Positions 1 to 29,333 are shown, counted from the stretch's first letter. The stretch: 32,000 bases of DNA from Dehalococcoidia bacterium (GCA_963667445.2 CAXXGY010000001.1:1757387-1789386), one strand, 5' to 3'. The notes: generated from the sequence alone by a model not told the origin. Numbers and translations are program-made.

Positions 1-2297
1 GGTGGGACGCCATCGAAAGCTGGGACGACCGGGAGGGCGAGACGGTGTGCGGGCTGTTCGTGGCTACGCTGTCGCATCACGGCAGGCCGCTCGCGCTCGA
101 TAGCGCCCTGCACCGCAATTCGGCTTTGTGGCGGGAGTACGGCGGGCTGCGACCGCGCGAGCAGGTGGAGCGCATCGGCGGGCTGCTGCGCCGCTGGTTT
201 CCCGACGACGCCTTCAACGCCAGCGCCCCGCGCTTGCCCAGCAGACCCGCCTTCCAGCACATGTTCCTGGGGCTGTGCACCTGGGCCGACTGGATCGGCT
301 CCAACGAGCGGTGGTTTCCTTACGTCGATGAGCCGGACGACGACTATTTCTTCAAAGTAGCCCGGCCCCAGGCGGCCCGCGCGATACGCGAGATGGGGCT
401 GGACGTCGGCGGGCAGCGCGAGGCGCTCGGCGTTGTGCCGGACTTCGGGCGGCTCTTCGGCGCGGACTTATCGCCGAACGCCATCCAGCGGGCCGCGCTA
501 GACGCCCCGCTGGACACGCCGGTGGTCATCGTGGAGTCCGAGACCGGCTCCGGCAAGACCGAGGCGGCGCTGTGGCGGTTCGCCCGAATGTACGAGAAGG
601 GCCTGGTGGACGGCATCTACTTCGCGCTGCCCACGCGCGCCGCCGCCAAGCAGATACACGACCGCGTGGAGCGATTCGTCGCCAAGCTCTTCCCGAACAA
701 GCCGCCGCCCGTCGTGCTGGCGGTGCCGGGCTACGAGCCGGGCGAGGACGCCGCCGCCAGCGCGATGGCCGACTACGACGAGGGCGCGGCCGGTCATCAG
801 CGCGAGGGCAGGGCGTGGGCCGCCGAGAGTCCCAAGCGCTACCTGGCCGCACAGGTAGCGGTGGGCACGGTGGACCAGGCGATGATGGCCGCGCTCAAGG
901 TCAAGCACTCGCACATGCGGGCGGCCTGCCTCGCCCGCAACCTGCTGGTGGTGGACGAGGTGCACGCCTCGGACACCTACATGGGCCGCGTCATCGAGGC
1001 GTTGCTGGACGCCCACACCGGCTCGGGCGGCTACGCGCTGCTGATGTCCGCGACGCTCGGCTCGGCGGCTCGGCATCGCTGGCTGAATCGCGGGCGGAGC
1101 GCGGGCCAGGGCGCGCCACTGCTCGAACAGGCCACCAAGACGCCCTATCCCGCCGTGAGCGGCGAGGGTATCGGCCTGACCGCCGCCGGACTCAACGACC
1201 AGTCCAAGCGCGTGTTCGTGGAGGCCAGCGCCACGATGGGCGATTTCGCCGACACCGCCCGCCGCGCGCTGGAGGCGGCCCGCGCGGGCGCGAAGGTGCT
1301 GGTGGTGCGCAACACCGTCGGCTACGCCATATCCACGCAGCGCGCGCTGGAGGAGTTGGCCGGGGCGGGGGACGACGCGCTGCTGTTCGGAGTTGAGGGC
1401 GTGACCTCGCTGCATCACGGGCGGTTCGCCGCCTGCGACCGCGCCATGCTGGACGCTCGAATCGAGGAACTGCTGGGCAAGGACAGGCGGGGCGGGGGCC
1501 GCGTGGTGGTGGGCACGCAGACGCTGGAGCAGTCGCTGGACATCGACGCGGACCTGCTGATAACGGACCTGTGCCCGGCGGACGTGCTGCTACAGCGTAT
1601 CGGGCGGCTGCACCGGCACCCGTTCGACAGGCTCAGGGCAGGTTCTGCGAGCGAGCGGCCCGAAGGTTTCGCCGACGCGCGCTGCGTGGTGCTGACTCCG
1701 GACGCGGAAGACATGTCGCCGCTGCTGGCGAGCGGCGAGAACGCCAACGGGCTGGGGCCGCGCGGCTTCGTGTACCCGGACCTGCGCGTGCTGGAGACGA
1801 CGCTGCGGCTGGTGCGCGAGCGGGGCGAGTGGCGCATCCCGCAGATGAACCGCGAGCTTGTGGAGCGGGCCACTCATCCCGACGCGCTGGCCGAGATTGT
1901 CGAGGAACTGGGCGACTGCTGGGCGGCCCACGCCAACGACATCACGGGCGGGAACATCGCCGAGGGCATTACCGCGAGCTACGCCATCGTCCGGCGGGAC
2001 GCGCCCTTCTTCTCCGAGGCGGGCAACCGCGACGTGCTGTTCCCGTCGGACGAGGAGCGCATCCGCACCCGGCTGGGCGACGACCGGGTGGACATCGCGC
2101 TGGACCCGCCGCAGCCCAGCCCGTTCAACTCGGCGAGTCGGATCGACAGGTTGGCGGTGTCGGTGCGGTGGCTACCGGAGGGCGCAGACACGTCGGAGCC
2201 GGTGGCGCCCACGCCGACGGACGGCGGCTTCGTGTTCGCCGTGGGGGAGCGTCGGTTCGTGTACGACCGGCTGGGGCTGCGGCGGCTGGATGCGTGA
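1..2297 (+). CDS. cas3: Cas3 nuclease-helicase, type I-E (5' end truncated by window edge)
   Basis: Frame 3 is open from the window edge to TGA at 2295-2297. HD-domain C-terminal motifs LSHHG and ADWIGS are present. SF2 helicase motifs: ESETGSGKTEAAL (I), LVVDEVHASD (II, DEVH), MSATLG (III), VGTQTLEQSLDID (V), LQRIGRLHRH (VI). Lies directly upstream of a cse1-to-cas2 operon. Confidence 0.93.
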   Translation, partial: WDAIESWDDREGETVCGLFVATLSHHGRPLALDSALHRNSALWREYGGLRPREQVERIGGLLRRWFPDDAFNASAPRLPSRPAFQHMFLGLCTWADWIGSNERWFPYVDEPDDDYFFKVARPQAARAIREMGLDVGGQREALGVVPDFGRLFGADLSPNAIQRAALDAPLDTPVVIVESETGSGKTEAALWRFARMYEKGLVDGIYFALPTRAAAKQIHDRVERFVAKLFPNKPPPVVLAVPGYEPGEDAAASAMADYDEGAAGHQREGRAWAAESPKRYLAAQVAVGTVDQAMMAALKVKHSHMRAACLARNLLVVDEVHASDTYMGRVIEALLDAHTGSGGYALLMSATLGSAARHRWLNRGRSAGQGAPLLEQATKTPYPAVSGEGIGLTAAGLNDQSKRVFVEASATMGDFADTARRALEAARAGAKVLVVRNTVGYAISTQRALEELAGAGDDALLFGVEGVTSLHHGRFAACDRAMLDARIEELLGKDRRGGGRVVVGTQTLEQSLDIDADLLITDLCPADVLLQRIGRLHRHPFDRLRAGSASERPEGFADARCVVLTPDAEDMSPLLASGENANGLGPRGFVYPDLRVLETTLRLVRERGEWRIPQMNRELVERATHPDALAEIVEELGDCWAAHANDITGGNIAEGITASYAIVRRDAPFFSEAGNRDVLFPSDEERIRTRLGDDRVDIALDPPQPSPFNSASRIDRLAVSVRWLPEGADTSEPVAPTPTDGGFVFAVGERRFVYDRLGLRRLDA

Positions 2298-2818: not shown

Positions 2819-2880
2819 ATGTATGAGTGGGTGGGCAGGAAGGTAGGCCAGGCGCCAATCGCGTTTAAGGAGTGGTTGAA

Positions 2881-3102
2881 ATGGCCCGAATCGAGGCTAG
2901 CGTCCCCGATGAACTGATTGCGGCTCTGGATGCGGCGGCGGCCAGGTTGGAGCGAAGCCGGTCGGAGCTGATTTGCTTCGCCATAGAGACTTACCTGGAA
3001 GATCTGGAAGACATTGAGATAGCCGTGCAGAGGTCGAACGACCCTTGCGAAGAGCCACTCGACTGGGAAGAGGTGAGGAGTGGCTTACTCGGTACGAGTT
3101 AA
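2881..3102 (+). CDS. Ribbon-helix-helix (CopG/RelB-like) type II antitoxin
   Basis: Protein MARIEASVPDELIAALDAAAARLERSRSELICFAIETYLEDLEDIEIA... has the typical RHH beta-strand plus two helices and an acidic C-terminal tail. AAGGAG (2866-2871) sits 9 nt before ATG 2881; the ORF track starts at GTG 2872. A RelE-like sequence follows immediately. Confidence 0.75.
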   Translation: MARIEASVPDELIAALDAAAARLERSRSELICFAIETYLEDLEDIEIAVQRSNDPCEEPLDWEEVRSGLLGTS

Positions 3103-3339
3103 GCCCAGCGCTCTGAGGGAGTTGGAGGGCGTCTCCGAGCCTATGAGAAGCCGGCTATGGCGAGCTATCGAAAGCCTCGCCGAGCGCCCTTTGCCGGTTC
3201 GGTGCTGCGGGGCGACCGGCGCGGATACCGCAGATTGCGTGTAGGAACCTACCGCATAATATACGAACTCCAGAGAGATGTGCTGATCGCCCTGGTCGCG
3301 CGTGTCTCCCACCGCCGAGGCGCCTACCGCAGGCGATAG
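3093..3339 (+). pseudogene. RelE/ParE-family toxin relic disrupted by two frameshifts, no usable start codon
   Basis: Three consecutive frame segments together read like one RelE: frame 3 YELSPAL* (3093-3116), frame 2 LRELEGVSEPMRSRLWRAIESLAERPLP (3113-3196), frame 1 GSVLRGDRRGYRRLRVGTYRIIYELQRDVLIALVARVSHRRGAYRRR* (to 3339). The last segment carries the classic YRLRVGDYRIIY...V.RV.HRR..YR signature. Confidence 0.65.
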
Positions 3340-3978: not shown

Positions 3979-5646
3979 ATGCCCAACAACATCCTGACTG
4001 AACGCCTGATTCGGATGGACAAATCCGACGGCTCGCGGGTGGCGGCGTCGCTGCCGGAGGTGTACGCGGCGCTGATGGCGGATGAGGTGGAGGCGTTTCC
4101 GGCGCTGCGTCCGCACCAGCGCCACGCACTCCACGCCTTCCTGGTGCAGTTGGGCGCGATGGCGATGCACGAGGCGGGACTGACTGAGCCGCCTGTCGTC
4201 TCGGGCCATTGGCGTCGGATCATACGCGGGCTTACCCCGGGGTGGCCGTGCGACGAGCCGTGGCAGTTGGTGGTGTGCGACATCACCAAGCCGGCGTTCA
4301 TGCAACCGCCCGCGTCGTCCAAAGAACTGGAGAAAGACTACAAGAACTCCGTTGGGACGCCCGACGAGCTAGACATGCTCGTCACGTCGAAGAACCACGA
4401 CGTGAAATCCGAAGTCGCGGGAGAGGTCCAAACCGACGATTGGGCTTTCGTCATCATCACCCTACAAACTATGGCAGGATACGACGGGGCCGGAAACTAC
4501 GGCATCTCCAGAATGCCAAGCGGGTATGGCAATCGCTCTGCATTTAGCCTGACCGCCTCCATCTCAGCGGGCGGTCATGTTCGCCACGACATCGTAGCTC
4601 TTTTGCAACACCGCGAGGAGATGCTGAACGATATTGCTTACCTTGCCGATAGTGGAAAAGATCTGTTGTGGGTAGAGACATGGGACGGCACGGAAAAGGA
4701 GGCAATAGCTGGTGGACTCGATCCGTTCTACATTGAAGTCTGCCGGCGGATTCGCCTTGTCAAGCGAGGGGGAACTCTGCAAAGCATACGGGCGCCGTCA
4801 AAACGACGGGGGCGACGTGCAATTGACATGAAGGGGTTGACGGGCGACCCCTGGCAACCCGTCGGAATAAACACCAATCCTAGAGGCACGCCACCGGCGT
4901 TCCTCGGGCCGCGCAAGTTTGGTTACGAGCGAGTCGTCGATGGTCTAACGTCTCCGGATTGGAAGCCGCCCTATCTTCTACGCCCATTGCAGTCTGAGCG
5001 AGACAAAGAAATGCTGCTGGTCGCGCGCGGCATGATTCGCGGCGAAGGCGGGACTTCGGGTTATCACGAGCGGACTATCCCGCTCAAGCCCAAGGTTGTG
5101 CGCGTGTTCGGACGTGGGGGTGGTCTCGAAGAACTTGGGGACATCGCACGGGAGCGAATAGAGCAAGTCGGCAAAGTGAAGAACATCTTGCGACATGCGA
5201 TTGCGACGTTCGCGGCCAATGGTGACAGCGACTTTGGCGCACATCGCAACGGGCAGCCTTCTCCGAACCAGTTGGCCCAGCCATGGGCGAACAGACTTGA
5301 CGAAATCGTAGATGCCCGCTTCTTCGAACACCTACAGGACGAGTTTGAAGAGGATGCGAGCGAGCGCGACGATGTTCGCAAGCAGTGGCTACGGAACGGC
5401 AATGACGGGGTGATTGACGAGGCCGAGAAAGTCCTGAGCGCGGCTCAAGACGCTTTGCCCTGTCTGTCGGTCCAGAAGTTCAAGGCGCGGGTGCGCGCTG
5501 ACAGCATATTCTGGGGACGGCTACGCGGCAATGAGGGACTGCCGTCTCTGTTCGATAGCCAAGAGGAGGAAGAAACGTGGGAGAACAGCGACCAGACGAC
5601 ACAGGAACGGAATCCGACGGAAGGGCAGATGACGCTGTTCGAGTAG
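3979..5646 (+). CDS. cas8e: Cas8e (Cse1/CasA), Cascade large subunit
   Basis: 555 aa. N-terminus LTERLIRMD...SLPEVYAALMADEVEAFPALRPHQRHALHAFLVQLG is the hallmark Cse1 opening. Also PAFMQPP, DELDMLVTSKNHDVK and LQTMAGYDGAGNYGISRMPSGYGNR. Position is directly before cse2. Confidence 0.93.
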   Translation: MPNNILTERLIRMDKSDGSRVAASLPEVYAALMADEVEAFPALRPHQRHALHAFLVQLGAMAMHEAGLTEPPVVSGHWRRIIRGLTPGWPCDEPWQLVVCDITKPAFMQPPASSKELEKDYKNSVGTPDELDMLVTSKNHDVKSEVAGEVQTDDWAFVIITLQTMAGYDGAGNYGISRMPSGYGNRSAFSLTASISAGGHVRHDIVALLQHREEMLNDIAYLADSGKDLLWVETWDGTEKEAIAGGLDPFYIEVCRRIRLVKRGGTLQSIRAPSKRRGRRAIDMKGLTGDPWQPVGINTNPRGTPPAFLGPRKFGYERVVDGLTSPDWKPPYLLRPLQSERDKEMLLVARGMIRGEGGTSGYHERTIPLKPKVVRVFGRGGGLEELGDIARERIEQVGKVKNILRHAIATFAANGDSDFGAHRNGQPSPNQLAQPWANRLDEIVDARFFEHLQDEFEEDASERDDVRKQWLRNGNDGVIDEAEKVLSAAQDALPCLSVQKFKARVRADSIFWGRLRGNEGLPSLFDSQEEEETWENSDQTTQERNPTEGQMTLFE

Positions 5647-6575
5647 AGCAACCACAGCAGCGGCCCGAGCCGGAGAGATTCTTCCAGAACGAGGCGCACG
5701 ACGTCGCTGCTCACTACGGATGGCGACCGTTCCATCTGCGCGACAGGGACAGCATCCACATTGTGCGCGGTAGGGGATTCCCCGACCTCGTCATGTGGAG
5801 GAAGGACTGTGAGACCGGGGAGATCGACCTGCTGGCCGCAGAGTTGAAGCGGGATGGCGAAAGCACACTCTTTGCTGAACAGCAAGAGTGGGTAGAGGCG
5901 TTGGGTCAGCACATTCCAACGTACACCTGGCGTCCCGAGAACTGGGACGAGATCGAGGACATCCTCCAGAATGGCACGGCGGGGCACCCAAGTTCGGAAA
6001 GGCAGTCTAGTAGCCCCCGCTCCAGCAGTCCCATACCCCACAACTTTGGCGACGTGATAACGAACACCGTCGAGGCGATTGAAGCCAAAGAGATGCCAAC
6101 CGGGGATAGGGCAAGTCTGCGGCGAATGGACCCTGTCGAACCCAACAGCGCGGTGTTCTGGAAACTGATGAATCAGCGAGGAATATCAGTTAACGCCGAT
6201 GTCAGCAAGTGGGGGCTCATCATGCACGGGATGGCGTTGATGGCGCACACCGCGGGGCTGGCTCACAATCCACGAATCAGAGTCGGGCGCGCGCTGTATG
6301 AAGGCGACGGTAGTAGGCCGCCCTTCTACAGCGAGGACAGGCTGTCAACTCTGCTCGCCGCAAGGGGCGACGCCCTACACCGGCTTCTGGCGCGGTTGTT
6401 CCGTATGCTGGCGAGTCAACGATGCGCCTTCAACTGGCGCGAGATGGCATGGTTCATTCTGAACGAAGGCCACAACGAAGAGCGCGCCGACGAAGCCAGA
6501 ATCCAAATCGCCAGAGCCTACTACCGCACAGAATACAGTTCATACCAGGCAAGTGCCCGGAGCGAAAGCGAGTAA
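5577..6575 (+). CDS. cas11e: VRR-NUC (PD-(D/E)XK nuclease) domain fused to Cas11e (Cse2/CasB), Cascade small subunit
   Basis: Continuous 332-aa ORF. GTG 5577 is preceded by GAGGAGGA (5563-5570). The N-terminal half has GFPDLVMW, LAAELKRDG and FAEQQEWVEAL...TYTWRPENWDEIEDIL (VRR-NUC pattern). A Ser/Pro linker follows. The C-terminal half has DRASLRRMDP, GRALYEG, RLSTLLAARGDALHRLLARLFRML, FNWREMAWFIL and IARAYYR (Cse2 pattern). It overlaps the cas8e 3' end by 70 nt. Confidence 0.85.
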   Translation: MGEQRPDDTGTESDGRADDAVRVEQPQQRPEPERFFQNEAHDVAAHYGWRPFHLRDRDSIHIVRGRGFPDLVMWRKDCETGEIDLLAAELKRDGESTLFAEQQEWVEALGQHIPTYTWRPENWDEIEDILQNGTAGHPSSERQSSSPRSSSPIPHNFGDVITNTVEAIEAKEMPTGDRASLRRMDPVEPNSAVFWKLMNQRGISVNADVSKWGLIMHGMALMAHTAGLAHNPRIRVGRALYEGDGSRPPFYSEDRLSTLLAARGDALHRLLARLFRMLASQRCAFNWREMAWFILNEGHNEERADEARIQIARAYYRTEYSSYQASARSESE

Positions 6576-6587
6576 GGAGAAGTAACC

Positions 6588-7772
6588 ATGACCATTCCCA
6601 AATTTCTGCAAATACACACGCTGCACTCGTACCCCGCTGCGCTGCTGAACCGCGACGACAGCGGCTTGGCCAAGCGCCTCACGTTCGGCGGCAGCGTCCG
6701 CACGCGCGTCTCGTCGCAGTCGCTCAAGCGCCACTGGCGCGTGGCGAAAGACGAGTTCGCCCTAAAGAACATCGATGGCGCGGCGGACGCTATCCGCTCA
6801 CGCAACGTCGTTGACCGCCGCGTAATCCAGCCCCTGCGCGAGGACGGGGCGTTCGAGGAAGAGTTGCTCAACGCCGTGCAGGAAGCCTTCAACGTGGAGG
6901 TGTACGGGACCGGGGGCGCGAGCGAGTCGGGCCGGCAGCCGCTGCTGTTGGGTCTGCCGGAAGTGGAGTACCTGCAAGAGAAGGCGCGCGCCATCTGTGA
7001 AGAGCACTCGGACGACGTGAAGGCCGCGGGCGACGCCGCGAAGCTGCTGTTCCAGGCGGCGCGCCGCAACGAGGAACGTGACAACTTCCGAGCGTTCCGT
7101 GAGCAGGCCAGCCTGCCGGGCGGTCTCATAGGCGCGATGTTCGGGCGCATGGTGACGTCCGACCCCGGCGCCAACATCGACGCGGCAATCCACGTGGCCC
7201 ACGCCTTCACCGTCCACGCAGAGGAGAGCGAGAGCGACTACTTCTCGGTGGTGGACGACCTGCAAGAGCCGGACGAGGACGCGGGCGCGGCCCACATCGG
7301 CGACATGGAACTCACCGCCGGCCTGTTCTACGGCTACGTGGTGGTAGACGTGTCCGGCCTTATCTCCAATCTGGAGGGATGCGACGCGGCGGACTGGCAG
7401 AACGAAGACTGCGGGCTGGCCGCCAAGGTGGTCGAGCACTTGGTACACCTCATCGCCACCGTGTCGCCGGGGGCGAAGCTGGGTTCCACCGCTCCCTACG
7501 CCGCCGCCGACCTGATGCTGATAGAGGCGGGCAGCCGCCAGCCGCGCAGCTTGGCGAATGCATTCCGCAAGGCCGTGCCCGCGCAGACCGAGTGCGCCAC
7601 GGACGCAATAGAGAAGTACCTGTCCGACCTCGACGAATGTTACCCTTCCTCCAAGGAGGCGCGTCGGGTGATGTCCGTCGGCAAGCGCGAACTGCCCGGC
7701 GCGTCGTGGCTGAACTGCGACGAGTTGGCGAACTGGGTCGCCGACGCCATACGCGCCGGCGAGGTCGCTTAG
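6588..7772 (+). CDS. cas7e: Cas7e (Cse4/CasC), Cascade backbone subunit
   Basis: 394 aa. FLQIHTLHSYPAALLNRDDSGLAKRLTFGGSVRTRVSSQSLKRHWR is the canonical CasC N-terminus. AAGGAGAAG RBS lies upstream. Confidence 0.95.
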   Translation: MTIPKFLQIHTLHSYPAALLNRDDSGLAKRLTFGGSVRTRVSSQSLKRHWRVAKDEFALKNIDGAADAIRSRNVVDRRVIQPLREDGAFEEELLNAVQEAFNVEVYGTGGASESGRQPLLLGLPEVEYLQEKARAICEEHSDDVKAAGDAAKLLFQAARRNEERDNFRAFREQASLPGGLIGAMFGRMVTSDPGANIDAAIHVAHAFTVHAEESESDYFSVVDDLQEPDEDAGAAHIGDMELTAGLFYGYVVVDVSGLISNLEGCDAADWQNEDCGLAAKVVEHLVHLIATVSPGAKLGSTAPYAAADLMLIEAGSRQPRSLANAFRKAVPAQTECATDAIEKYLSDLDECYPSSKEARRVMSVGKRELPGASWLNCDELANWVADAIRAGEVA

Positions 7773-7774
7773 CC

Positions 7775-8623
7775 ATGCGGCATCTCATCATCAGACTAGA
7801 AGCGCCGCTCATGGCGTTCGGCGGCGAGGCCATCGATAACCTGGGCGTCATCCGGCCATTCCCGGCGGCGTCGATGCTGACGGGGCTGTTCGCCAATGCG
7901 CTTGGGTGGAGGCGTATCGAGCGCGAGCGGCACCAGCAGTTGCAGGATAGGCTTGTGTTCGCGGCGCGCATCGACCGCGAGCCTGCGGGCGGCTACGCGA
8001 TGACCGACTTCCAGACGGCGCAGTTGGGCGCGAACGACCGCGGCTGGACCACGCACGGCAAGCCGGAGGGCCGGGCGGGTGGCGCGGCGACGTACAACGC
8101 GCCGCATCTGCGCTACCGGGACTATTACGCAGATATGCGCGTGACGGTGGCGCTGCGGCTTGACCCACCGGGCGAGTCCCCTACCCTGGACGAACTGGCC
8201 GCCGCGCTGGATGAACCGGCGCGTCCGCTGTTCATCGGGCGCAAGCCGTGCCTGCCGTCTTCACGCTTTCGCTTGTTCGGCGACTGCCGAGATTTCAAGG
8301 ACACGCCCGACGTGCTGGCCGCGTTGCTGGCAGTTCCCCTACCCGACGACGCGGACGTCCCCCGCTCGGTGCGTATGCTCTGGCCTGAGCGCGATGTAGA
8401 GACGGTTCCGGACGTGGTGTCGGTTGACCGCCGGGTCATGCTGACGGACGAGCGCAACTGGGTGTCGGGTCTGCACGGCGGCGGCAGGCGCGTGGTGGAG
8501 GGGAGGGCGCCGCGGGGCGCGTTCGGGGGGATTGTCCACGAAGGGCACGAAGGACGCGAAGATGGGGGGTGCCGCGGGACGAGTGAGGAGGCGGCGATTA
8601 TCGAGGAGGAGGCGACGCAATGA
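7775..8623 (+). CDS. cas5e: Cas5e (CasD) with about 35-aa Gly/acidic C-terminal tail
   Basis: ATG 7775 lies 2 nt after the cas7e stop, in frame within track ORF 7379..8623. MRHLIIRLEAPLMAFGGEAIDNLGVIRPFPAASMLTGLFANALGW is the canonical Cas5e opening, and FIGRKPCLPS is present. The stop overlaps the cas6e start (ATGA). Confidence 0.9.
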   Translation: MRHLIIRLEAPLMAFGGEAIDNLGVIRPFPAASMLTGLFANALGWRRIERERHQQLQDRLVFAARIDREPAGGYAMTDFQTAQLGANDRGWTTHGKPEGRAGGAATYNAPHLRYRDYYADMRVTVALRLDPPGESPTLDELAAALDEPARPLFIGRKPCLPSSRFRLFGDCRDFKDTPDVLAALLAVPLPDDADVPRSVRMLWPERDVETVPDVVSVDRRVMLTDERNWVSGLHGGGRRVVEGRAPRGAFGGIVHEGHEGREDGGCRGTSEEAAIIEEEATQ

Positions 8624-9471
8624 CGACGGCAACGGCGACGGCGCTGCGGATGGTGCGCGCCGAGATTGACTTGCGCGAGTTCAATCGCTGGATGGGGTCG
8701 AGGCAGTTCCAGGACCCGGACCACGCTATGCACTGCCTGCTGAGGGAGTGTTTCGGCGAGCACGCGCCCAAGCCCTTCCGCGTGGTGGCGACACGCGGGG
8801 CGTCCCGGGCATCCCTGTACGGCTACGGCACGGCGGACGCCGGTGCGCTGCGGGAGTCCGCGGCCATGTGCGCCTGCCCGCTACAGGCGCGGGCGCTGCC
8901 CGCCGACCGGATCGACGACAAGCCGATGCCGGCCGAGTGGCGGGTGGGGCTGCGGCTGGGCTTCGAGGCGCGGGTGCGGCCTGTGGTGCGGGGTACACGC
9001 AGAGGGGAGTGCAGAAATGCCGACGCACCATGCGGCGAACGCCGCCTTGCTCGCAAGAATCAGCGGGGCGAACGCCGCCTCGCTCGCAAGGAACAGTGCG
9101 ACAACTGCCGCGCGAGTCCGGAGCAGGACGCCTTCTTGTATGAAGCCCTGATGCACAAGGATAAGGGCGAAATGGAACGGACCGGACGCACCCGCGAAGC
9201 AGTGTACCGGGACTGGCTCGCCGCCAAGATCGAGAAGTGTGGCGGCGCGGCGCTGGATAAGGAAGCGACGAAGCTGGTGTCGTTCCGGCGCACGCGGGCC
9301 GTCCGCAAGCGTCACCGCCGCTACAGCGAAGGCCCGGACGCGCTGATGCGCGGCGAGCTGGAGGTGACCGACTCGGCCGCGTTCGGCAAGCTGCTGGCGC
9401 GCGGCGTCGGCCGGCACCGCGCCTACGGCTACGGGATGCTGCTGCTGCGTCCCGCCGGAAGGCGCGGCTAG
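8620..9471 (+). CDS. cas6e: Cas6e (CasE/Cse3) crRNA endoribonuclease with an internal Cys-containing insertion
   Basis: 283 aa versus about 200-220 typical. The C-terminal G-rich loop motif LLARGVGRHRAYGYGMLLL is present. RLGFEARVRP resembles the FRLRANP strand. Position is between cas5e and cas1. Confidence 0.9.
   Translation: MTTATATALRMVRAEIDLREFNRWMGSRQFQDPDHAMHCLLRECFGEHAPKPFRVVATRGASRASLYGYGTADAGALRESAAMCACPLQARALPADRIDDKPMPAEWRVGLRLGFEARVRPVVRGTRRGECRNADAPCGERRLARKNQRGERRLARKEQCDNCRASPEQDAFLYEALMHKDKGEMERTGRTREAVYRDWLAAKIEKCGGAALDKEATKLVSFRRTRAVRKRHRRYSEGPDALMRGELEVTDSAAFGKLLARGVGRHRAYGYGMLLLRPAGRRG
9034..9099 (+). repeat. 33-bp in-frame tandem duplication inside cas6e
   Basis: ggcgaacgccgccttgctcgcaagaatcagcgg (9034-9066) is followed by ggcgaacgccgcctcgctcgcaaggaacagtgc (9067-9099), encoding GERRLARKNQR / GERRLARKEQC. 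Confidence 0.85.
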
Positions 9472-9505: not shown

Positions 9506-9652
9506 GTAGTGGTTAGTGATTAGTTCTTAGTTGTTAGTTGTTAGTTGTTAGTTGGGGGGCAACAGCGTGGATCCCCTTCACGCACCTGACTACTGGCCAC
9601 TGATCACTAACCACTAATAACTGACCACTAACTACTAACCACTAACCACTGG
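9506..9652. repeat. Palindromic element built from inverted blocks of 7-bp tandem repeats (copy A)
   Basis: Left arm: gtggtta gtgatta gttctta gttgtta gttgtta gttgtta gttgg. A GC-rich loop of about 30 nt follows. Right arm: tgactac tggccac tgatcac taaccac taataac tgaccac taactac taaccac taaccac, the complementary heptamers. AT-rich in a GC-rich genome. It shares the 5' end GGGAGG(T/A)AGTGGTTAGTG with the copy at 18024. Confidence 0.7.
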
Positions 9653-9662
9653 AGACTGCCGA

Positions 9663-10595
9663 ATGTTGAGAGGACGCTTGGGACTGGAGACGGCCCGTAT
9701 TCCCCATGCCGACCGGCACGGGCTGTTGTGGCTGTCGCGCGGGGCGCTCACCGTGCGGAACGGCACGCTTCGTTTCGAGCGGGAGAGCGCGCCCACGCGC
9801 GACAGCGGCCTGGATGCGGGGGAGTACGGGATACCGTTCCAATCGCTGAGCATGATCTTACTGGGCCCCGGCTCCACGGTCAGCCACGACGCGCTGCGGC
9901 TGATGGCGAGGCACGGCACGGCGCTGGTGGCGGTGGGTCAGGACGGGGTGAGGTGCTACACCGCGCCGCCGCTTTTGCCGGACACGTCGGACGTGGCGCG
10001 GCGACAGATGCGGGCGTGGGGCGACGCCGAGGGGAGCCGGATAACGATAGCGCGCAGGATGTACGCGATGCGGCTGGGGGAGGTGTTGCCTCACCGCGAC
10101 ATCGCCGCGCTGCGGGGGATCGAGGGTTCGCGCATGAGGCGGACGTACCAGGCGCTGGCGCAGAGGTATGGCATCGACTGGCGGGGTCGGCGGTACGACA
10201 GGGCCAATCCGACGGCGGCGGACATACCGAACCAGGCTATCAACCACGCCTCGGTGGCGGTGAACTCGGCGGCGGTCATCGCGGTCACGGCGACGGGGGC
10301 GATACCGCAGCTCGGTTTCATCCACGAGCACAGCGGGGAGGCGTTCGCGCTGGACATCGCGGACCTGTTCAGGGACACGGTGTTGCTGCCGGCGGCGTTC
10401 ACGGCGGCGCGGGAGGTGGCGCGGAATCCGGGCCTGAACGTGGAGCGTCACACGAGGCGTCTGACGGGCGAGATGCTGAGGAAGGAGAGGGTGATTGCGT
10501 CGATGATCGACAGGATAAAGGATCTGTTCGAGGGCGTGGAGGCGTTGGAGGCGCCGGAGCCTGGCGTCGAAGAAGTGGGAGACGACGTGGCATGA
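9663..10595 (+). CDS. cas1: Cas1 integrase, type I-E
   Basis: 310 aa. RIPHADRHGLLWLSRGALTVRNGTLRF..., GPGSTVSHDALRLMARHG and LGFIHEHSGEAFALDIADLFR are typical Cas1e. GGAGA RBS is present. The stop overlaps the cas2 ATG (ATGA). Confidence 0.95.
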   Translation: MLRGRLGLETARIPHADRHGLLWLSRGALTVRNGTLRFERESAPTRDSGLDAGEYGIPFQSLSMILLGPGSTVSHDALRLMARHGTALVAVGQDGVRCYTAPPLLPDTSDVARRQMRAWGDAEGSRITIARRMYAMRLGEVLPHRDIAALRGIEGSRMRRTYQALAQRYGIDWRGRRYDRANPTAADIPNQAINHASVAVNSAAVIAVTATGAIPQLGFIHEHSGEAFALDIADLFRDTVLLPAAFTAAREVARNPGLNVERHTRRLTGEMLRKERVIASMIDRIKDLFEGVEALEAPEPGVEEVGDDVA

Positions 10596-10879
10596 CGGTT
10601 GTGGTGACGATAAACGTGGGGGGCAGATACAGGGGGTTTCTGGCGTCGGCGATGCTGGAGATAGCGGCGGGGGTGTACACGAGCCCGGGGATGACGGCGG
10701 GCATCCGGGAGCGGATATGGGACGTGCTGAGCCGGTGGTACGCGGAGACGGGGGAGGGATCGATAGTGATGACGTGGCGGGACGATTCGGCGGTGAGCGG
10801 GCAACGGATACGGACGCTTGGGGAGTCGCCGAAGGAGATAGTGGACGCGGACGGGGTGTATCTGGTGAAGTACAGCTAG
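10592..10879 (+). CDS. cas2: Cas2, type I-E
   Basis: 95 aa, MTVVVTINVGGRYRGFLASAMLEIAAGVYTSPGMTAGIRERIWDVL..., the Cas2e pattern (RGFL...E...GVY). In frame within track ORF 9728..10879 and immediately precedes the leader and array. Confidence 0.9.
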   Translation: MTVVVTINVGGRYRGFLASAMLEIAAGVYTSPGMTAGIRERIWDVLSRWYAETGEGSIVMTWRDDSAVSGQRIRTLGESPKEIVDADGVYLVKYS

Positions 10880-10981: not shown

Positions 10982-13900
10982 GGTTGCCCCGCGCGGGCGG
11001 GGATAGACCTCGGCAGCATCTCGTTTGAGCCATCATCTCCCAGGTTGCCCCGCGCGGGCGGGGATAGACCATAGCAACGCAAATCGCCAGCGGTGCCGTG
11101 CGCGGTTGCCCCGCGCGGGCGGGGATAGACCTGGCACCGGCGCAGCGAGCACGTCCACCGACGGGGTTGCCCCGCGCGGGCGGGGATAGACCCTATCCGC
11201 AGGACGCGCCGCACATTCCGCAGGCGGTTGCCCCGCGCGGGCGGGGATAGACCATAGAGCGTGGCGAACGACACATCTAACTCAGTGGTTGCCCCGCGCG
11301 GGCGGGGATAGACCTTAGCAATGACAACTCGTCGCTCCCTTCCGGTGGGTTGCCCCGCGCGGGCGGGGATAGACCGCAGCGACGGGGCCGACGGTCGAAG
11401 ACAGCAGGGGTTGCCCCGCGCGGGCGGGGATAGACCGTTAGCGCCGCTTTCTCCAGGTGGTTGCCGCTCGGTTGCCCCGCGCGGGCGGGGATAGACCGGA
11501 CACCTGCGTCTGGCAGGGTATGGGCTGGTCGGTTGCCCCGCGCGGGCGGGGATAGACCGTTGCGGCCATGATAGCGGCGCTGCCTTTGGGCGGTTGCCCC
11601 GCGCGGGCGGGGATAGACCCTTTGGACCTTCTATGGTCGCGCTGTGTTCACAGGTTGCCCCGCGCGGGCGGGGATAGACCGCTGCTTGCCTTTGGCGCCT
11701 TCGCGGTGTTGATGGTTGCCCCGCGCGGGCGGGGATAGACCGTTGCGGCCATGATAGCGGCGCTGCCTTTGGGCGGTTGCCCCGCGCGGGCGGGGATAGA
11801 CCCTTTGGACCTTCTATGGTCGCGCTGTGTTCACAGGTTGCCCCGCGCGGGCGGGGATAGACCGCTGCTTGCCTTTGGCGCCTTCGCGGTGTTGATGGTT
11901 GCCCCGCGCGGGCGGGGATAGACCCCGCCATGAAGCCATGAAGCGCCACCATCACCAGGTTGCCCCGCGCGGGCGGGGATAGACCGGAGCGCGCCAGGAC
12001 GCAGCCGCCGCCGCAGGTGGTTGCCCCGCGCGGGCGGGGATAGACCGTCCGACGCGTCCGGCTTATGAGCGCGAACAACGGTTGCCCCGCGCGGGCGGGG
12101 ATAGACCCCCGAGGTGGATTGATGACCACCGGCTCAGGAGGGTTGCCCCGCGCGGGCGGGGATAGACCTCGACGGCAGACTCAAAGCCGACGAGATAGCC
12201 CGGTTGCCCCGCGCGGGCGGGGATAGACCAAGATCGCCCTCTATGTCAGACCGAGTAGTGTCGGTTGCCCCGCGCGGGCGGGGATAGACCCGTCCGGCCC
12301 CACAGCGTCTATCAGGTTAGCCCGGTTGCCCCGCGCGGGCGGGGATAGACCGCCAAAGGAGGCAACATGGAAACGTTGATCGACGGTTGCCCCGCGCGGG
12401 CGGGGATAGACCCCGGTCGTGGGTCGCACGCAAGAGACGCCGGTCGGTTGCCCCGCGCGGGCGGGGATAGACCCTCTCCATCACGCAACTCAACTCGATC
12501 TGTTGGGGTTGCCCCGCGCGGGCGGGGATAGACCCGTCTGGGGGGGTTATGGCACAGGCAAATCGCAGGTTGCCCCGCGCGGGCGGGGATAGACCCGCCC
12601 GAGAACTGGAGCCAGACCTGGCCATCATGGTTGCCCCGCGCGGGCGGGGATAGACCGTTTGAGGACGTGGGGGAAAGCGTATCGGGATAGGTTGCCCCGC
12701 GCGGGCGGGGATAGACCGATGGTGTTATCGGGGTTGGCCGACATAGGTTGGGTTGCCCCGCGCGGGCGGGGATAGACCGTTGACCAGGTCATCGGCAACT
12801 ACGCAGACACGGGTTGCCCCGCGCGGGCGGGGATAGACCCCTCGCCCTCACCCTCACCCTCGCCCTCACCCTGGTTGCCCCGCGCGGGCGGGGATAGACC
12901 TCCGGCCCCGCGCAGCTTCCCGCCGCAATCGACGGTTGCCCCGCGCGGGCGGGGATAGACCCGTTGATTCCGGGCGTTGGAGTCCACCAGGCGCGGTTGC
13001 CCCGCGCGGGCGGGGATAGACCTCCGGCAACGTCGCCACGGCCACCACCTGCAGGGGTTGCCCCGCGCGGGCGGGGATAGACCCCCGTCGACGGCCCCGT
13101 CCAGCGCGCCCGTGTCGGTTGCCCCGCGCGGGCGGGGATAGACCCGTCGCTTTTAGCGTTTTGTCCATCTCCTCGGCGGTTGCCCCGCGCGGGCGGGGAT
13201 AGACCCTGGACATAGAGCGTACCGTCAGAACACTGGACGGTTGCCCCGCGCGGGCGGGGATAGACCCCAGCTACACGGCTACTACCTCGGACGCGAGCGG
13301 GTTGCCCCGCGCGGGCGGGGATAGACCCCAGACCGTGACCTTGCCCATAGCCCAGGTGGAGGTTGCCCCGCGCGGGCGGGGATAGACCTGAGATTCCCGA
13401 ATCTTTCCACTCACTCGAGGCGGTTGCCCCGCGCGGGCGGGGATAGACCGCTAGATGCCTCCCCGTCCTCTTCGCGGCCAGGGGTTGCCCCGCGCGGGCG
13501 GGGATAGACCTCTCGCACGAATCGCGCAATCGTGGTGTCCGAGGGTTGCCCCGCGCGGGCGGGGATAGACCCAGCTAGAGGCAATCGAGCGCGCGAAGGA
13601 ACTAGGTTGCCCCGCGCGGGCGGGGATAGACCCGACGTTTCGATTTCGCCGCCGCGCACGGCGATGGTTGCCCCGCGCGGGCGGGGATAGACCGATTCGC
13701 GCGTCGGCGTCCACGGGTCGCCCGGAGGTTGCCCCGCGCGGGCGGGGATAGACCTCGCGCACGTCAGCCCACGCCAGGCCGCCGCGTGGTTGCCCCGCGC
13801 GGGCGGGGATAGACCCCGGCCTGCCCTGGCCCTCGGTCGGCGTCCAGGGGTTGCCCCGCGCGGGCGGGGATAGACCGCTGCGCCAGGCCGCCGACCGACC

Positions 13901-15645
13901 GCCCAGGACGGTTGCCCCGCGCGGGCGGGGATAGACCGGTCGACCAGCGCCCTTAGCGCCTGCTCTCCGGGGTTGCCCCGCGCGGGCGGGGATAGACCGC
14001 AATGGCGCGCCCAGGGTGACCCGCGCGGACTGGTTGCCCCGCGCGGGCGGGGATAGACCTCGACGGCGTGGCCCTCGGTCGGCGTCCAGGACGGTTGCCC
14101 CGCGCGGGCGGGGATAGACCCTGGTGGCGCGCGTGCTCGGCTCAGGCGCGCGCGGTTGCCCCGCGCGGGCGGGGATAGACCCCCTGATACCGCCCTTATC
14201 GGGGCGAACCCGCCGGTTGCCCCGCGCGGGCGGGGATAGACCCCCCCGCCGTCAGATTCAGATAAACCCAACGGGGGTTGCCCCGCGCGGGCGGGGATAG
14301 ACCCCGCTGGCGTAGTTACGGGAAGCACGCCCGTTGGGTTGCCCCGCGCGGGCGGGGATAGACCGCCTCTCTATTCAGTCTGACTAGGCGGGCTACCGGT
14401 TGCCCCGCGCGGGCGGGGATAGACCTCGAACATCGGGGAGCGGGACGGATTGTAGTATGGTTGCCCCGCGCGGGCGGGGATAGACCTCCGATGCTAGCGT
14501 CACCCACACTAACTGATAAGGTTGCCCCGCGCGGGCGGGGATAGACCCAGGCGCTGCAAGCGCCGCGCCCCGGCCGGATTGGTTGCCCCGCGCGGGCGGG
14601 GATAGACCCTGGTATGGCGTGGTATCCTTCTCTCTCTTTCAGGTTGCCCCGCGCGGGCGGGGATAGACCTCGTGCACATACGGAAGCACGGAGGAATCTG
14701 AAGGTTGCCCCGCGCGGGCGGGGATAGACCCGGCCGCCCCGAATCCGACGCCCTGGGCGGCCGGGTTGCCCCGCGCGGGCGGGGATAGACCGCGTTCGCC
14801 TTCTCTGTCAGCGTGTAGCGGGTCGGTTGCCCCGCGCGGGCGGGGATAGACCGCGTTCGCCTTCTCTGTCAGCGTGTAGCGGGTCGGTTGCCCCGCGCGG
14901 GCGGGGATAGACCTCATGGCCTTCCTCCTTTCTTTAAGATTGCAGGGGTTGCCCCGCGCGGGCGGGGATAGACCGGGGCCAGGACATAGCGGGTTGCCGT
15001 GCGACCCGGTTGCCCCGCGCGGGCGGGGATAGACCTGAGCATGTAGACCATGATATGCCGGTTCGGAAGGTTGCCCCGCGCGGGCGGGGATAGACCCGGC
15101 ACGAGCAGCTAATCGAGCGGCTGGAGTCGGGTTGCCCCGCGCGGGCGGGGATAGACCTCACGGCCTGGAGTCGCGCGCTGGACATCGAGGGGTTGCCCCG
15201 CGCGGGCGGGGATAGACCGCGCGACCCGCTCGTGCGGGAGGTGGTGGGCAAGGTTGCCCCGCGCGGGCGGGGATAGACCCTTGCCGTCCCTGAGCTTCGT
15301 ACCGCAGCCGCAGGTTGCCCCGCGCGGGCGGGGATAGACCGCCGCCGCAAACGACGGGATGCCCGAAGACGTCGGTTGCCCCGCGCGGGCGGGGATAGAC
15401 CGGTTCGGCGAACTCGGGTGGCAGCCCTTCATGGGGTTGCCCCGCGCGGGCGGGGATAGACCTGAGCAATCTCGGCACAGGTCGAATCCGATGGTGGTTG
15501 CCCCGCGCGGGCGGGGATAGACCCCAGACTCGGAACGAGAGACATACTCGGACTGAGGTTGCCCCGCGCGGGCGGGGATAGACCGTGCGAAGCTCCGAAC
15601 TGTCGCAGCCGCAAGGAGGTTACCCCGCACGCGCGGGATAGACAG
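10982..15645 (+). CRISPR. Type I-E CRISPR array, 77 repeats / 76 spacers
   Basis: 28-nt repeat GGTTGCCCCGCGCGGGCGGGGATAGACC recurs at a strict 61-nt period (10982 + 61n), with spacers of about 33 nt. It has the same architecture and orientation as the E. coli I-E repeat GAGTTCCCCGCGCCAGCGGGGATAAACCG. The terminal repeat 15618-15645 (GGTTACCCCGCACGCGCGGGATAGACA) is degenerate. Confidence 0.98.
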
Positions 15646-15805: not shown

Positions 15806-15882
15806 TGGTAGCGCATAGGGGATTCGAACCCCTGATCTCCGCCTTGAGAGGGCGGTGTCCTGGGCCACTAGACGAATGCGCC
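15806..15882 (-). tRNA. tRNA-Glu (anticodon CTC), CCA encoded
   Basis: Reverse complement is GGCGCATTCGTCTAGTGGCCCAGGACACCGCCCTCTCAAGGCGGAGATCAGGGGTTCGAATCCCCTATGCGCTACCA. It folds as a 77-nt cloverleaf with anticodon stem CCGCC/GGCGG, loop CTCTCAA and T-loop TTCGAAT. The G1-U72 wobble is slightly unusual. Confidence 0.82.
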
Positions 15883-15910
15883 ACGCAAAGGCCCGCTTGG
15901 AGCGCCAAGC

Positions 15911-15984
15911 TGGCTGGGGATCGAGGATTCGAACCTCGGCCTACGGATCCAGAGTCCGTCGTTCTGCCACTAGACTAATCCCCA
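15911..15984 (-). tRNA. tRNA-Gln (anticodon CTG), CCA encoded
   Basis: Reverse complement is TGGGGATTAGTCTAGTGGCAGAACGACGGACTCTGGATCCGTAGGCCGAGGTTCGAATCCTCGATCCCCAGCCA. Acceptor TGGGGAT/ATCCCCA, anticodon stem ACGGA/TCCGT, loop CTCTGGA, T-loop TTCGAAT. Confidence 0.9.
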
Positions 15985-17170: not shown

Positions 17171-18040
17171 ATGAAACTAGGCGTAGTTTTTCCGCAGACC
17201 GAGATAACCTCAGACGCCGGCGCCGTCAGGGAGTACGCGCAGGCCGCCGAGGAGCTGGGCTATAACCACCTGCTGGCGTTCGACCACGTGCTGGGCGCGA
17301 ACGCCGACAGCCGCCCGGGCTGGAGCGGCGCCTATCGCCACACGGACCAGTTCCACGAGCCGTTCGTGCTATTCGGCTACCTGGCGGGCGTCACCGAGCG
17401 CATCGAGCTTGTGACCGGCGTCATCATCCTGCCCCAGCGCCAGACCGCGCTCGTGGCGAAGCAGACCGCCGCGGTGGACGTGCTGAGCGGCGGACGGCTG
17501 CGACTGGGCATAGGCGTGGGCTGGAACGCCGTGGAGTACGAGGCGCTCGGTGAGAATTTTCATGATCGGGGGCTGCGCTCGGAAGAGCAGATCGAGCTGA
17601 TGCGCCGATTGTGGACGGAAGAATTGATAACGTTCGAGGGCCGTTGGCACAAGGTCACCGACGCGGGCATCAACCCGCTGCCCGTCCAGCGTCCCATCCC
17701 GGTGTGGCTCGGGGGCCGCGCGCCGCAGACCATCAGCCGCATCGCGCGCATGGGCGACGGCTGGTTCCCGCTGTTCCCGCCGGACGACGAGGGCCGCGCC
17801 TTGATAGAGGATCTGCGCGAGCAGACTACCGCCGCCGGGCGCGACCCCGACGCCATCGGCATCGAGAGCTGGGTGTCGATAGGCCGAGGCTCCCCCGACG
17901 ACTGGGCCGCCGTCGTCGAAAGCTGGCGCGAGCTCGGCGCGACGCACATATCGGTGAACACCATGAACGCTGGCCTGTCGTCGCCGGCCGAGCACATCGA
18001 GGCGATACGGCGGTTCAGGGAGGAAGTGGTTAGTGGTTAG
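17171..18040 (+). CDS. LLM-class F420-dependent oxidoreductase (Rv2161c-like subgroup)
   Basis: ATG 17171 with AAAGGAG upstream. MKLGVVFPQTEITSDAGAVREYAQAAEELGYNHLLAFDHVLGA..., RLRLGIGVGWNAVEYEALG and PIPVWLGG are present. The stop codon lies inside the heptamer-repeat element. Confidence 0.88.
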   Translation: MKLGVVFPQTEITSDAGAVREYAQAAEELGYNHLLAFDHVLGANADSRPGWSGAYRHTDQFHEPFVLFGYLAGVTERIELVTGVIILPQRQTALVAKQTAAVDVLSGGRLRLGIGVGWNAVEYEALGENFHDRGLRSEEQIELMRRLWTEELITFEGRWHKVTDAGINPLPVQRPIPVWLGGRAPQTISRIARMGDGWFPLFPPDDEGRALIEDLREQTTAAGRDPDAIGIESWVSIGRGSPDDWAAVVESWRELGATHISVNTMNAGLSSPAEHIEAIRRFREEVVSG

Positions 18041-18182
18041 TGATCAGTGGTTAGTTATTAGTTATTAGTGGTTAGTTGTTAGTGGGTCAGTGGCCGTGGT
18101 CTGCGTATCGCCCGCAGTCTGGTGGCGAACCACTGATAACTGATAACTGACCTACTGAACAACTGACAAACTGGCCTACTAA
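18024..18182. repeat. Palindromic element built from inverted blocks of 7-bp tandem repeats (copy B)
   Basis: Left arm: gtggtta gtggtta gtgatca gtggtta gttatta gttatta gtggtta gttgtta gtgggtca. A GC-rich loop follows. Right arm: gaaccac tgataac tgataac tgaccta ctgaaca... It lies between convergent genes and contains both of their stop codons. Confidence 0.7.
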
Positions 18183-27999: not shown

Positions 28000-28034
28000 C
28001 GCGGCGGGCGGTCGTGCTATAGGATTGACTTACG

Positions 28035-28430
28035 ATGACGACGCAACACGAAACGACAATCCAAGAGTACGTCGCCCAGGCGTTGGAGTTCCTCTCGCAG
28101 TCCGAGGCCGAGTTTGCGGCGGGCGACACGCGGCAGGGTGCCGAGAAGCTGTACGGCGCGGCGTGCCAGGTAGTGATGGCTGCCGCCAAGCAGCGCGGCT
28201 GGGGTTACCGCTCGCACAGGGACAACAAGAACACCGCCATCAGACTGGCCGACGAGTACGGGGACCTTTCGTTATCCCTTGGCTTTGCGGCTGCCGAGAG
28301 GTTTCACGTCCACTTCTTCCACGGCGACATGGAGGACTACCAGATTGACGGGGACCGCCCCCAGGTGGGAGCCTACGTGCGGCGTATGGCGGCCCTCGTC
28401 GAGGAGTACGAGGCCAACGGTAGTGCGTGA
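28035..28430 (+). CDS. PaREP1/HEPN-like protein, tandem copy 1
   Basis: 131 aa: ...AQALEFLSQSEAEFAAGDTRQGAEKLYGAACQVVMAAAKQRGWGYRSHRDNKNTAIRLADEYGD...AAERFHVHFFHGDMEDY... ATG start. Confidence 0.75.
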   Translation: MTTQHETTIQEYVAQALEFLSQSEAEFAAGDTRQGAEKLYGAACQVVMAAAKQRGWGYRSHRDNKNTAIRLADEYGDLSLSLGFAAAERFHVHFFHGDMEDYQIDGDRPQVGAYVRRMAALVEEYEANGSA

Positions 28431-28467
28431 ATCCGAGCTACCGTTGTTGAACAAGGACTGACTTTCC

Positions 28468-28863: not shown

Positions 28864-28900
28864 ATCCGAGCTACCGTTGTTGAACAAGGACTGACTTTCC

Positions 28901-29296: not shown

Positions 29297-29333
29297 AACC
29301 GCTCTATCGTCGTTCGATAAGGACTGATTCTCC

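Follow-up and report, generated by a model that had tools for sequence, protein, structure and literature searches.

A 32,000-nucleotide stretch of Dehalococcoidia bacterium DNA (GCA_963667445.2 CAXXGY010000001.1:1757387-1789386), referred to below as the window, contains a complete type I-E CRISPR locus with the order cas3, cas8e, fusion gene, cas7e, cas5e, cas6e, cas1e, cas2e and repeat array. The fusion gene, located between cas8e and cas7e (5577..6575, plus strand), starts with GTG, has no internal stop codon and encodes 332 amino acids. Its product is almost certainly the Cascade small subunit Cas11e (Cse2), to which a VRR-NUC domain of the PD-(D/E)XK type is appended at the amino end on a flexible tether. 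The more far-reaching statement, in which this identity is combined with a role as a Cascade-tethered nuclease acting on the R-loop, has in our estimate slightly better than even chances of being correct.

A previous reading of the window, made from the sequence alone (the sequence-only reading), had regarded a fusion between Cas11 and a nuclease as unreported. The fusion that it had described was confirmed, but the belief that it was unreported was mistaken. A VRR-NUC nuclease fused to Cas11 in I-E systems was published in 2023 under the name Cas11-VRR (Altae-Tran et al., Science 2023, PMC10910872), in a survey that lists 'Cas11-VRR (Cse2_VRR), 7 / 7.2' loci and devotes one sentence and a locus figure to them, without analysing residues, proposing a mechanism or reporting experiments. 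The representative of that survey, cas11vrrA (supplementary file 5, identical to P0085), has the same N-terminal VRR-NUC domain, linker and Cse2 part, and its gene lies in a I-E operon beside a CRISPR array. The window protein was 60% identical to it over 306 columns spanning both domains (BLASTP, E 1e-128), and the window locus is a further member of the published family. To the published account of Cas11-VRR the present analysis adds another member, from a complete locus, together with hundreds of relatives, tandem variants in which one domain is dead, and loci that have no cas3 beside them.

The fusion is encoded by one continuous gene

The open reading frame (ORF) runs through the Ser/Pro linker without a stop codon, as the sequence-only reading had described, and a homologous continuous fusion gene was found in 22 of the 23 genome loci that were fetched. 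The window protein was 52-83% identical to over 100 protein clusters with lengths of 283-337 amino acids, which covered 83-100% of the query. The first 70 nucleotides of the gene overlap the 3' end of cas8e (3979..5646). A Shine-Dalgarno-like site read from the sequence, AGAGGAGGAAG (5562..5572, plus strand), places GGAGG 7 nucleotides upstream of GTG 5577, in agreement with the strong site that had been claimed for this start. An alignment was made of the window protein and 98 homologues of 300-340 amino acids (A1, 99 sequences). In this alignment 94 sequences start with Met at the column of GTG 5577 and continue with x-E-Q-x-P, which supports the start at this codon.

In the public record of the window gene (P0004, 100% identical) the protein has only 260 amino acids and starts at Met73. 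According to the structure model, translation from Met73 would remove the catalytic Asp together with helix alpha1 and strand beta1, and would cut strand beta2. Homologues such as P0012, P0020, P0271 and P0273, among others, are likewise annotated from internal Met codons; gene callers often choose an internal Met for this gene, and the nuclease domain is thereby hidden. Met73 was rejected as the true start because the region upstream of it is highly conserved (E33, F36, W49 and G65-D70 are invariant), belongs to a well-folded domain and has a low ratio of nonsynonymous to synonymous substitution rates (dN/dS).

The public annotations would suit an artefact, either a separate VRR-NUC gene and a separate cse2 that an error of sequencing or assembly has merged, or a downstream start that leaves out the nuclease half. 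Such an artefact would have to account for an uninterrupted ORF that recurs in over 100 independent protein clusters and, across several phyla, in 22 genome loci, for the high conservation and low dN/dS of the region N-terminal to Met73, for the good Shine-Dalgarno site before GTG 5577, and for the break that a start at Met73 would make in strand beta2 of a well-predicted fold. Taking these together, we put its probability close to nil.

It had also been proposed that an internal in-frame ATG (Met173, 6093..6095, plus strand) serves as a second start, so that a long and a short isoform coexist. This proposal was not supported. Of the 99 sequences of A1, only 49 have Met at this position and most of the remaining ones have F, L, Y or I, and the purine-rich stretch preceding the ATG abuts it directly, with no spaced Shine-Dalgarno site. 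A start at Met173 would drop a predicted helix (residues 157-169). Moreover, the match to the casB_cse2 profile begins at profile position 15 of 167 (residue 171), which indicates that the canonical Cse2 fold extends N-terminal of M173. The internal ATG is probably not used, and a short isoform is unlikely.

The C-terminal half and the linker

The Cas11e/Cse2 domain comprises residues 154-332, corresponding with the stop codon to 6036..6575 (plus strand). Two curated models were matched above their cut-offs: Pfam CRISPR_Cse2 (PF09485) at residues 177-316 (E 4.7e-11, 43.7 bits versus a cut-off of 24.6) and the equivalog TIGR02548 casB_cse2 at residues 171-318 (E 1.3e-14, 54.7 bits versus 28.5). 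In an AlphaFold2 model of the full protein, computed from the 99-sequence alignment (mean predicted local distance difference test score, pLDDT, 81.7), residues 157-331 were all-helical, mostly with pLDDT 90-98. The best Foldseek matches of this half were 5u07_J, 2zca_A and 5h9e_B (target-normalised template modelling (TM) score 0.65-0.71, probability 1.0), which are the Cse2 chains of the T. fusca and E. coli Cascades and T. thermophilus Cse2. The solved I-E Cascades among the PDB matches hold two Cse2 chains (5u07_J/B, 5h9e_B/C).

These results agree with the earlier description of the C-terminal half as an ordinary Cse2. The C-terminal 180 residues of the fusion share the family and the all-helical fold of canonical Cse2/CasB/Cas11e from E. 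coli, T. thermophilus (2ZCA) and T. fusca (5U07), and canonical loci have the order cas8e-cas11-cas7 that is seen in the window. In contrast to canonical Cse2, which has about 160-180 amino acids and no enzymatic domain, the fusion protein has 150 extra N-terminal residues with the nuclease.

The two halves are connected by a Ser/Pro/Thr-rich linker, predicted to be flexible (residues 134-153, 5976..6035, plus strand; pLDDT below 50 at residues 141-149, conservation 0.39). Among the 99 homologues its length is 18-24 residues, mostly 19-20, and its sequence is poorly conserved. The N-terminal tail (residues 1-30, 5577..5666, plus strand), which is encoded mostly inside the overlap with cas8e, is predicted to be disordered (pLDDT below 50 for residues 1-29, mean column conservation 0.39).

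Assignment of the N-terminal half to VRR-NUC

The VRR-NUC nuclease domain (residues 31-133, 5667..5975, plus strand) was identified by family-level homology, fold and an invariant active site. Pfam VRR_NUC (PF08774) was the sole Pfam match of the N-terminal half (E 0.008-0.015). Judged from the window protein by itself, the assignment was weak, the VRR_NUC score of 15.8-16.7 bits lying below the gathering threshold of 23.8. Also counting against it were the modest Foldseek E-values of the modelled domain (about 0.01) and the lack of any match to a profile of the family among PDB sequences. In searches with the N-terminal half, phmmer returned only chance kinase matches from the PDB sequences (E above 0.3), NCBIfam had no model that matched, and PHROGs gave only a weak match to 'Holliday junction resolvase' (E 0.41).

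The picture was different at the level of the family. VRR_NUC was matched by 34 of 35 diverse members of the fusion family (best E 5.8e-6), and two relatives with a tandem arrangement, P0059 (25.7 bits) and P0103 (23.9 bits), passed the cut-off. A phmmer search with residues 28-135 against 1.84 billion representatives returned the fusion family first and then hundreds of standalone proteins of 100-160 amino acids, with about 40% identity and E-values down to 6e-12, matches between 6e-12 and 1e-8 being to standalone proteins of 100-135 amino acids; six of the eight standalone matches tested passed the Pfam VRR_NUC cut-off. When the N-domains of the fusion family (A2) were aligned with 20 of the standalone proteins (A3) by hhalign, the probability was 100% and the E-value 1.1e-40 over 97 columns. 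The N-terminal motifs quoted by the sequence-only reading are present and do not reflect chance. The terminal W-R-P..W..I..L element, to which that reading had drawn attention, is common to the fusion domain and a subfamily of standalone VRR-NUC proteins.

Structure prediction led to the same family. The AlphaFold2 model of the domain alone (pLDDT 89.8, predicted TM score 0.79) contains the nuclease core, with the elements H-E-E-H-E-H after a short beta1. Its top Foldseek neighbours were the VRR-Nuc structures 4QBL, 4QBN (4qbn_A, TM 0.62/0.71, probability 1.00) and 4QBO; FAN1 and other PD-(D/E)XK nucleases ranked next. The domain resembles standalone VRR-Nuc proteins (psNUC 4QBL, stNUC 4QBN, saNUC 4QBO; PMC4103454) in its size of about 100 amino acids, its topology, its E-PD-ExK+Q site and the C-terminal WRP..W..IE..L helix. 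With FAN1 (4RI8 and others) it shares the catalytic core, the beta-hairpin and the ExK region superposing at 2.4 A over 54 columns, and in each case the VRR-Nuc domain forms part of a larger protein that recognises DNA. We regard the VRR-NUC assignment as settled because the family-level evidence overrides the sub-threshold score of the single sequence. The profile searches upheld the Cse2 part of the earlier reading outright; its VRR_NUC part fell short of the threshold for the single sequence and was rescued by the family; standalone homologues, hhalign and Foldseek all support an N-terminal PD-(D/E)XK domain.

The active site and its decay in tandem variants

The predicted catalytic codons lie within the VRR-NUC domain on the plus strand: E33 (5673-5675), D70 (5784-5786), E89 (5841-5843), K91 (5847-5849) and Q102 (5880-5882). 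An E-PD-ExK metal site, together with a VRR-specific Gln that is hydrogen-bonded to the catalytic Lys, is known from the crystal structures of VRR-Nuc proteins (Pennell et al. 2014, PMC4103454). In A1 the residues E33, G65, G67-F68-P69-D70, E89-L90-K91, Q102, W105 and W118 were invariant in 99 of 99 sequences; among them are the residues singled out as catalytic by the sequence-only reading (the D of GFPD, E-x-K and Q-x2-W). Pairwise dN/dS was 0.03-0.19 for the VRR-NUC domain and comparable, 0.05-0.23, for the Cse2 half. Since all active-site residues of the E-PD-ExK(+Q) type are present, the domain is predicted to be catalytically competent, and it seems to be an active nuclease.

Six relatives of 401-460 amino acids (P0058, P0059, P0087, P0089, P0103 and P0111) carry two VRR-NUC domains in front of Cse2. 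In their first copy GFPD, AELK and Q..W are kept, the 5'-truncated P0111 having AFPD. In the second, Cse2-proximal copy the FPD segment reads FP(R/H)W, so that the catalytic Asp is gone, and A, T or S stands where AELK has its catalytic Glu (AALK, ATLK, ATLR, ASLR, ATFK). One tandem gene (L024, 10001-11383) belongs to a full I-E system with Cas3 (including the HD domain), Cas1 and Cas2. The tandem variants serve as an internal control: judged from the sequences, decay of the second copy is what would be expected where catalysis is not needed, and it fits a dimer or pseudo-dimer as the working unit.

These data bear on the idea that the domain has a non-catalytic, structural role, in which it would bind branched DNA and stabilise or sense the R-loop, or help to recruit Cas3. 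Inactivated PD-(D/E)XK domains commonly act as DNA binders, and the second copy of the tandem variants is a dead domain of this kind. However, the five active-site residues are invariant in all 99 single-domain homologues, and the tandem proteins always keep one intact copy, which means that the catalytic residues are specifically maintained. A purely structural role is therefore quite improbable.

Relatives and loci without an adjacent cas3

A search with the full-length protein yielded 636 clusters at E-values up to 1e-3. Each of the best 120 either has the N-domain or is a shortened annotation of a protein that has it. Among species-representative genomes the fusion was found in Dehalococcoidia, other Chloroflexota, Candidatus Binatia, Candidatus Entotheonella and metagenome-assembled genomes (MAGs) of Thermodesulfobacteriota; the nearest relatives of the window locus are Dehalococcoidia MAGs. 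None of the viral contigs that were scanned carries a fusion, and there is thus no sign of its being phage-borne; tblastn against 50,697 phage genomes gave only two weak matches, both in Arthrobacter phages (32-33% identity).

The order cas8e, fusion, cas7, cas5, cas6e was conserved in 22 of the 23 loci, and cas1 and cas2 come after cas6e wherever the genes are present and the sequence is long enough. The exception is a Binatota locus (L022) with a plain Cse2, and the fusion is therefore not universal in the clade. A cas3 match was obtained by tblastn in 18 of the 23 loci, near full length in 16, and ten Cas3 proteins taken from related loci have 880-919 amino acids and intact HD motifs. Arrays of related loci reach more than 90 repeats. 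The presence of a Cas3 with an HD domain, pointed out for the window by the sequence-only reading, is thus the rule in related loci as well. Because most fusion loci keep Cas3, the VRR-NUC nuclease is normally additional to it.

No cas3 adjoins the fusion locus in L002, L003, L023, L010 and L005, the sequence of L002 extending only about 3 kb upstream; in L005 a transposase of an insertion sequence occupies the expected cas3 position. Three of these loci are from Dehalococcoidia (L002 3053-8915, L003 5430-11301, L023 8400-14571) and encode fusion proteins about 82% identical to the window protein. They consist of cas8e, fusion, cas7, cas5, cas6e and a short array, with no adjacent cas3, cas1 or cas2. 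Their Cascade genes are all intact (omega 0.13-0.36) and the nuclease motif is unchanged. The arrays contain 9-14 mutually differing repeats in which the Cas6e hairpin is kept through paired changes, and one spacer is common to L002 and L003. The flanking genes of L003 and L023 are alike, and L002 has the same flank at the array end. From these features it looks as though the three loci have maintained a Cascade with no Cas3 beside it. The Binatia locus L010 (8463-14073) similarly keeps the catalytic motif without adjacent cas3, cas1 or cas2, and has three repeats only.

The same loci are informative about an alternative in which the domain assists adaptation in the manner of Cas4: during primed adaptation it would produce prespacers by trimming Cas3 fragments or flaps. 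Like this domain, Cas4 is a CRISPR-associated PD-(D/E)XK nuclease, type I-E systems are without Cas4, and most fusion loci have cas1-cas2 and long arrays (up to the more than 90 repeats mentioned), suggesting active acquisition. On the other hand, the domain is attached to an effector subunit and not to Cas1 or Cas2. In L002, L003 and L023 the catalytic residues and a low dN/dS persist without adjacent cas1, cas2 or cas3, and the arrays seem to be no longer growing. Cas4 itself partners Cas1-Cas2 in adaptation and has a four-cysteine Fe-S cluster; no conserved cysteines were found in the N-domain alignment, where the sole Cys, C78, varies, and the domain was not counted as a Cas4. The prespacer role, which had been suggested for the domain before this analysis, is weakened by the purifying selection seen without adjacent cas1-cas2 and by the missing cysteine cluster, and we consider it very unlikely. 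A role in interference is preferred, since loci without adjacent cas1-cas2 and cas3 keep the domain and since its fusion partner is a subunit of the effector.

Proposed action at the R-loop

In the type I-E Cascades of E. coli and T. fusca, two copies of Cas11 lie along the belly of the complex, beside the duplex of CRISPR RNA and target and the displaced strand. With two Cas11 copies, each Cascade would carry two tethered nuclease domains. In the mechanism proposed here, binding of Cascade to its target would allow these two domains to come together as a pair on the branched R-loop DNA, where they would introduce a Mg2+-dependent nick or double-strand break independently of Cas3. In loci that keep Cas3 with an intact HD domain, VRR-NUC would serve as a second interference nuclease, either as a back-up when Cas3 is blocked or for a second-strand or entry cut; loci without an adjacent cas3 would have no nuclease besides it. 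For this cleavage mechanism taken separately, we see the chances as evenly balanced.

The pairing step is proposed by analogy with other VRR-Nuc proteins. In prokaryotes the standalone forms are obligate dimers that have two active sites and cut four-way junctions and branched DNA, whereas FAN1 is a monomeric flap nuclease, being kept from dimerising by a helical insertion between beta1 and beta2 (PMC4103454). This insertion also gives FAN1 its 5'-flap specificity. In the model of the fusion domain there is no insertion, the beta1-beta2 connector having about 15 residues. Because a FAN1-type insertion is missing and two copies are present per Cascade, the two domains of one complex probably pair on the R-loop, by analogy with the standalone enzymes. 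The latter differ from the fusion domain in being free homodimers that resolve Holliday junctions, while the fusion domain is tethered to an RNA-guided complex. The idea of a dimer is in line with a tether that is free to vary in sequence but stays within 18-24 residues. The sequences of the tandem variants with one active and one dead copy would also fit, as a built-in pseudo-dimer with one active site.

Several considerations weigh against a Cascade-tethered R-loop nuclease. With a Cas3 that has an intact HD domain in the window locus and in 18 of the 23 loci, a second nuclease is not obviously needed. The genomes of the cas3-less loci may encode cas3 elsewhere, and the short arrays with heterogeneous repeats in these loci could reflect slow decay. 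The pairing of the domains is drawn from analogy only. Finally, in the literature on VRR-NUC in connection with Cse2, Cas11, type I-E, Cascade or CRISPR, only the 2023 survey was found, with no functional follow-up.

A further alternative shares the trigger and differs in the outcome. Formation of the R-loop might release or pair the domains for non-specific cutting of branched DNA or of whatever DNA is close by, leading to collateral damage and growth arrest, i.e. an abortive response. Collateral nuclease activity was reported for the related I-E Cas5-HNH Cascade (PMC10910872), VRR-Nuc domains are reported to act as toxic structure-specific nucleases in type VI secretion system effectors (PMC9635880), and a flexible tether would permit action in trans. 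A defined local substrate is nevertheless a better match for a tether that is short (about 20 residues) and conserved in length, and in most loci Cas3 already provides processive destruction. We consider a collateral nuclease unlikely, and retain local cleavage of the R-loop as the preferred role.

Other features of the window locus

The remaining genes of the locus are all on the plus strand. The 5' end of cas3 (1..2297) lies beyond the window edge, the frame being open to base 3; its product matched Pfam Cas3_HD (profile positions 121-207 only), DEAD and Cas3-like_C_2. The divergent cas8e (cse1, 3979..5646) matched TIGR02547 casA_cse1 below the cut-off (E 1.4e-11) and no Pfam model; its position is conserved, and it is 48-68% identical across related loci. 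Downstream of the fusion gene follow cas7e (6588..7772; PF09344, E 5.6e-96; TIGR01869, E 2.6e-90), cas5e (7775..8623, start taken at ATG 7775; TIGR01868, E 3.6e-52), cas6e (8620..9471; PF08798, E 2.7e-29; TIGR01907), cas1e (9663..10595; TIGR03638, E 1.8e-82) and cas2e (10592..10879; TIGR01873, E 4.7e-28). A 383-amino-acid ORF (9728-10879) is a spurious extension, in which only the final 95 codons (10592-10879) belong to cas2e; the remainder lies across cas1e in a different frame.

The CRISPR array (10982..15645, plus strand) consists of 76 identical 28-nucleotide repeats, GGTTGCCCCGCGCGGGCGGGGATAGACC, with a period of 61 nucleotides, the last scored repeat starting at 15557. Given the identical repeats and the adaptation genes, these sequence features indicate a working, acquiring CRISPR system. 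Between 11409 and 12047 a block of three repeat-spacer units (183 nucleotides) is duplicated, spacer 11559 being equal to 11742 and 11681 to 11864. Directly after the array, genes for tRNA-Glu(CTC) and tRNA-Gln(CTG) are found on the minus strand (15806-15984); a tRNA-Pro(CGG) gene (31087-31162) is located near the window end.

Between cas3 and cas8e there is a toxin-antitoxin pair (2872-3339), with a RelB-like ribbon-helix-helix antitoxin (2872-3102; NF048017, E 5e-12) and a RelE/StbE-like toxin gene that seems to be split by a frameshift (3080-3244 and 3157-3339). The corresponding gap of L024 contains a PaREP1 gene. PaREP1 (PF05942, E 1e-13) also occurs at 28021-29735 of the window as four tandem paralogues of about 131 amino acids with a 433-nucleotide period and 92% identity. 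The interval between cas6e and cas1 (9507-9650) contains about seven copies of TAGTTGT followed by about eight copies of the complement CCACTAA, which fold as a long imperfect hairpin (-64 kcal/mol, z -5.2). The heptamer recurs in another run at 18024-18093, and the element was absent from the related loci examined.

The GC content at third codon positions (GC3) was 0.69 for cas8e and 0.69-0.70 for the fusion gene, as compared with 0.92 for cas3 and 0.83-0.88 for cas7, cas5, cas6e, cas1 and cas2. The dip at the fusion gene was observed in seven fusion loci from different phyla (L001, L004, L009, L013, L015, L019 and L023). The dip at cas8e was less consistent across related loci, and the plain cse2 of L022 shows no dip. 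On the basis of composition, the pair of large and small subunit genes may be a mobile cassette that comes from a source with lower GC content.

Implications

Type I CRISPR systems normally depend on a separate helicase-nuclease, Cas3, which shreds long stretches of DNA. Unlike Cas3, a nuclease that is part of the Cascade backbone could give local, defined cuts, and it is owing to such cuts that HNH-bearing Cascades became genome-editing tools. In the I-E Cas5-HNH and I-F Cas8-HNH systems (PMC10910872; 8YB6) a nuclease is likewise grafted onto a backbone subunit of Cascade, and as in some Cas11-VRR relatives cas3 is not adjacent. The two types of fusion differ in that the HNH fold is carried by Cas5 or Cas8, whereas in Cas11-VRR a PD-(D/E)XK fold is carried by Cas11, which is present in two copies. 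They differ also in that most HNH systems lost cas3, whereas the window locus and most Cas11-VRR loci keep it. With cas3 present in the window, this locus does not belong among the cas3-less nuclease-Cascades.

The window locus provides a complete and apparently active example of Cas11-VRR, with cas3, cas1-cas2 and 76 identical repeats. To a specialist the fusion itself will be no surprise. The predicted nuclease, the relatives that are possibly independent of Cas3 and the dead-domain tandems make it a reasonable target for experiments, for which the comparative data predict five residues to mutate, a probable paired action of the domains, and that some relatives may function without Cas3.

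A bolder idea, which we put forward tentatively and hold to be rather doubtful, is that Cas11-VRR Cascade is a self-contained RNA-guided cutter, whose domains would pair in the manner of FokI or a resolvase only upon R-loop formation and make a defined nick or double-strand break without the help of Cas3. If this were true, L002, L003 and L023 would be natural minimal versions of such a cutter, and the tandem variants with one active and one dead copy would be built-in nickase pseudo-dimers. The Cas11-VRR family would then represent a third route of precise cleavage in type I systems, after Cas5-HNH and Cas8-HNH, and a candidate for a compact editing tool.

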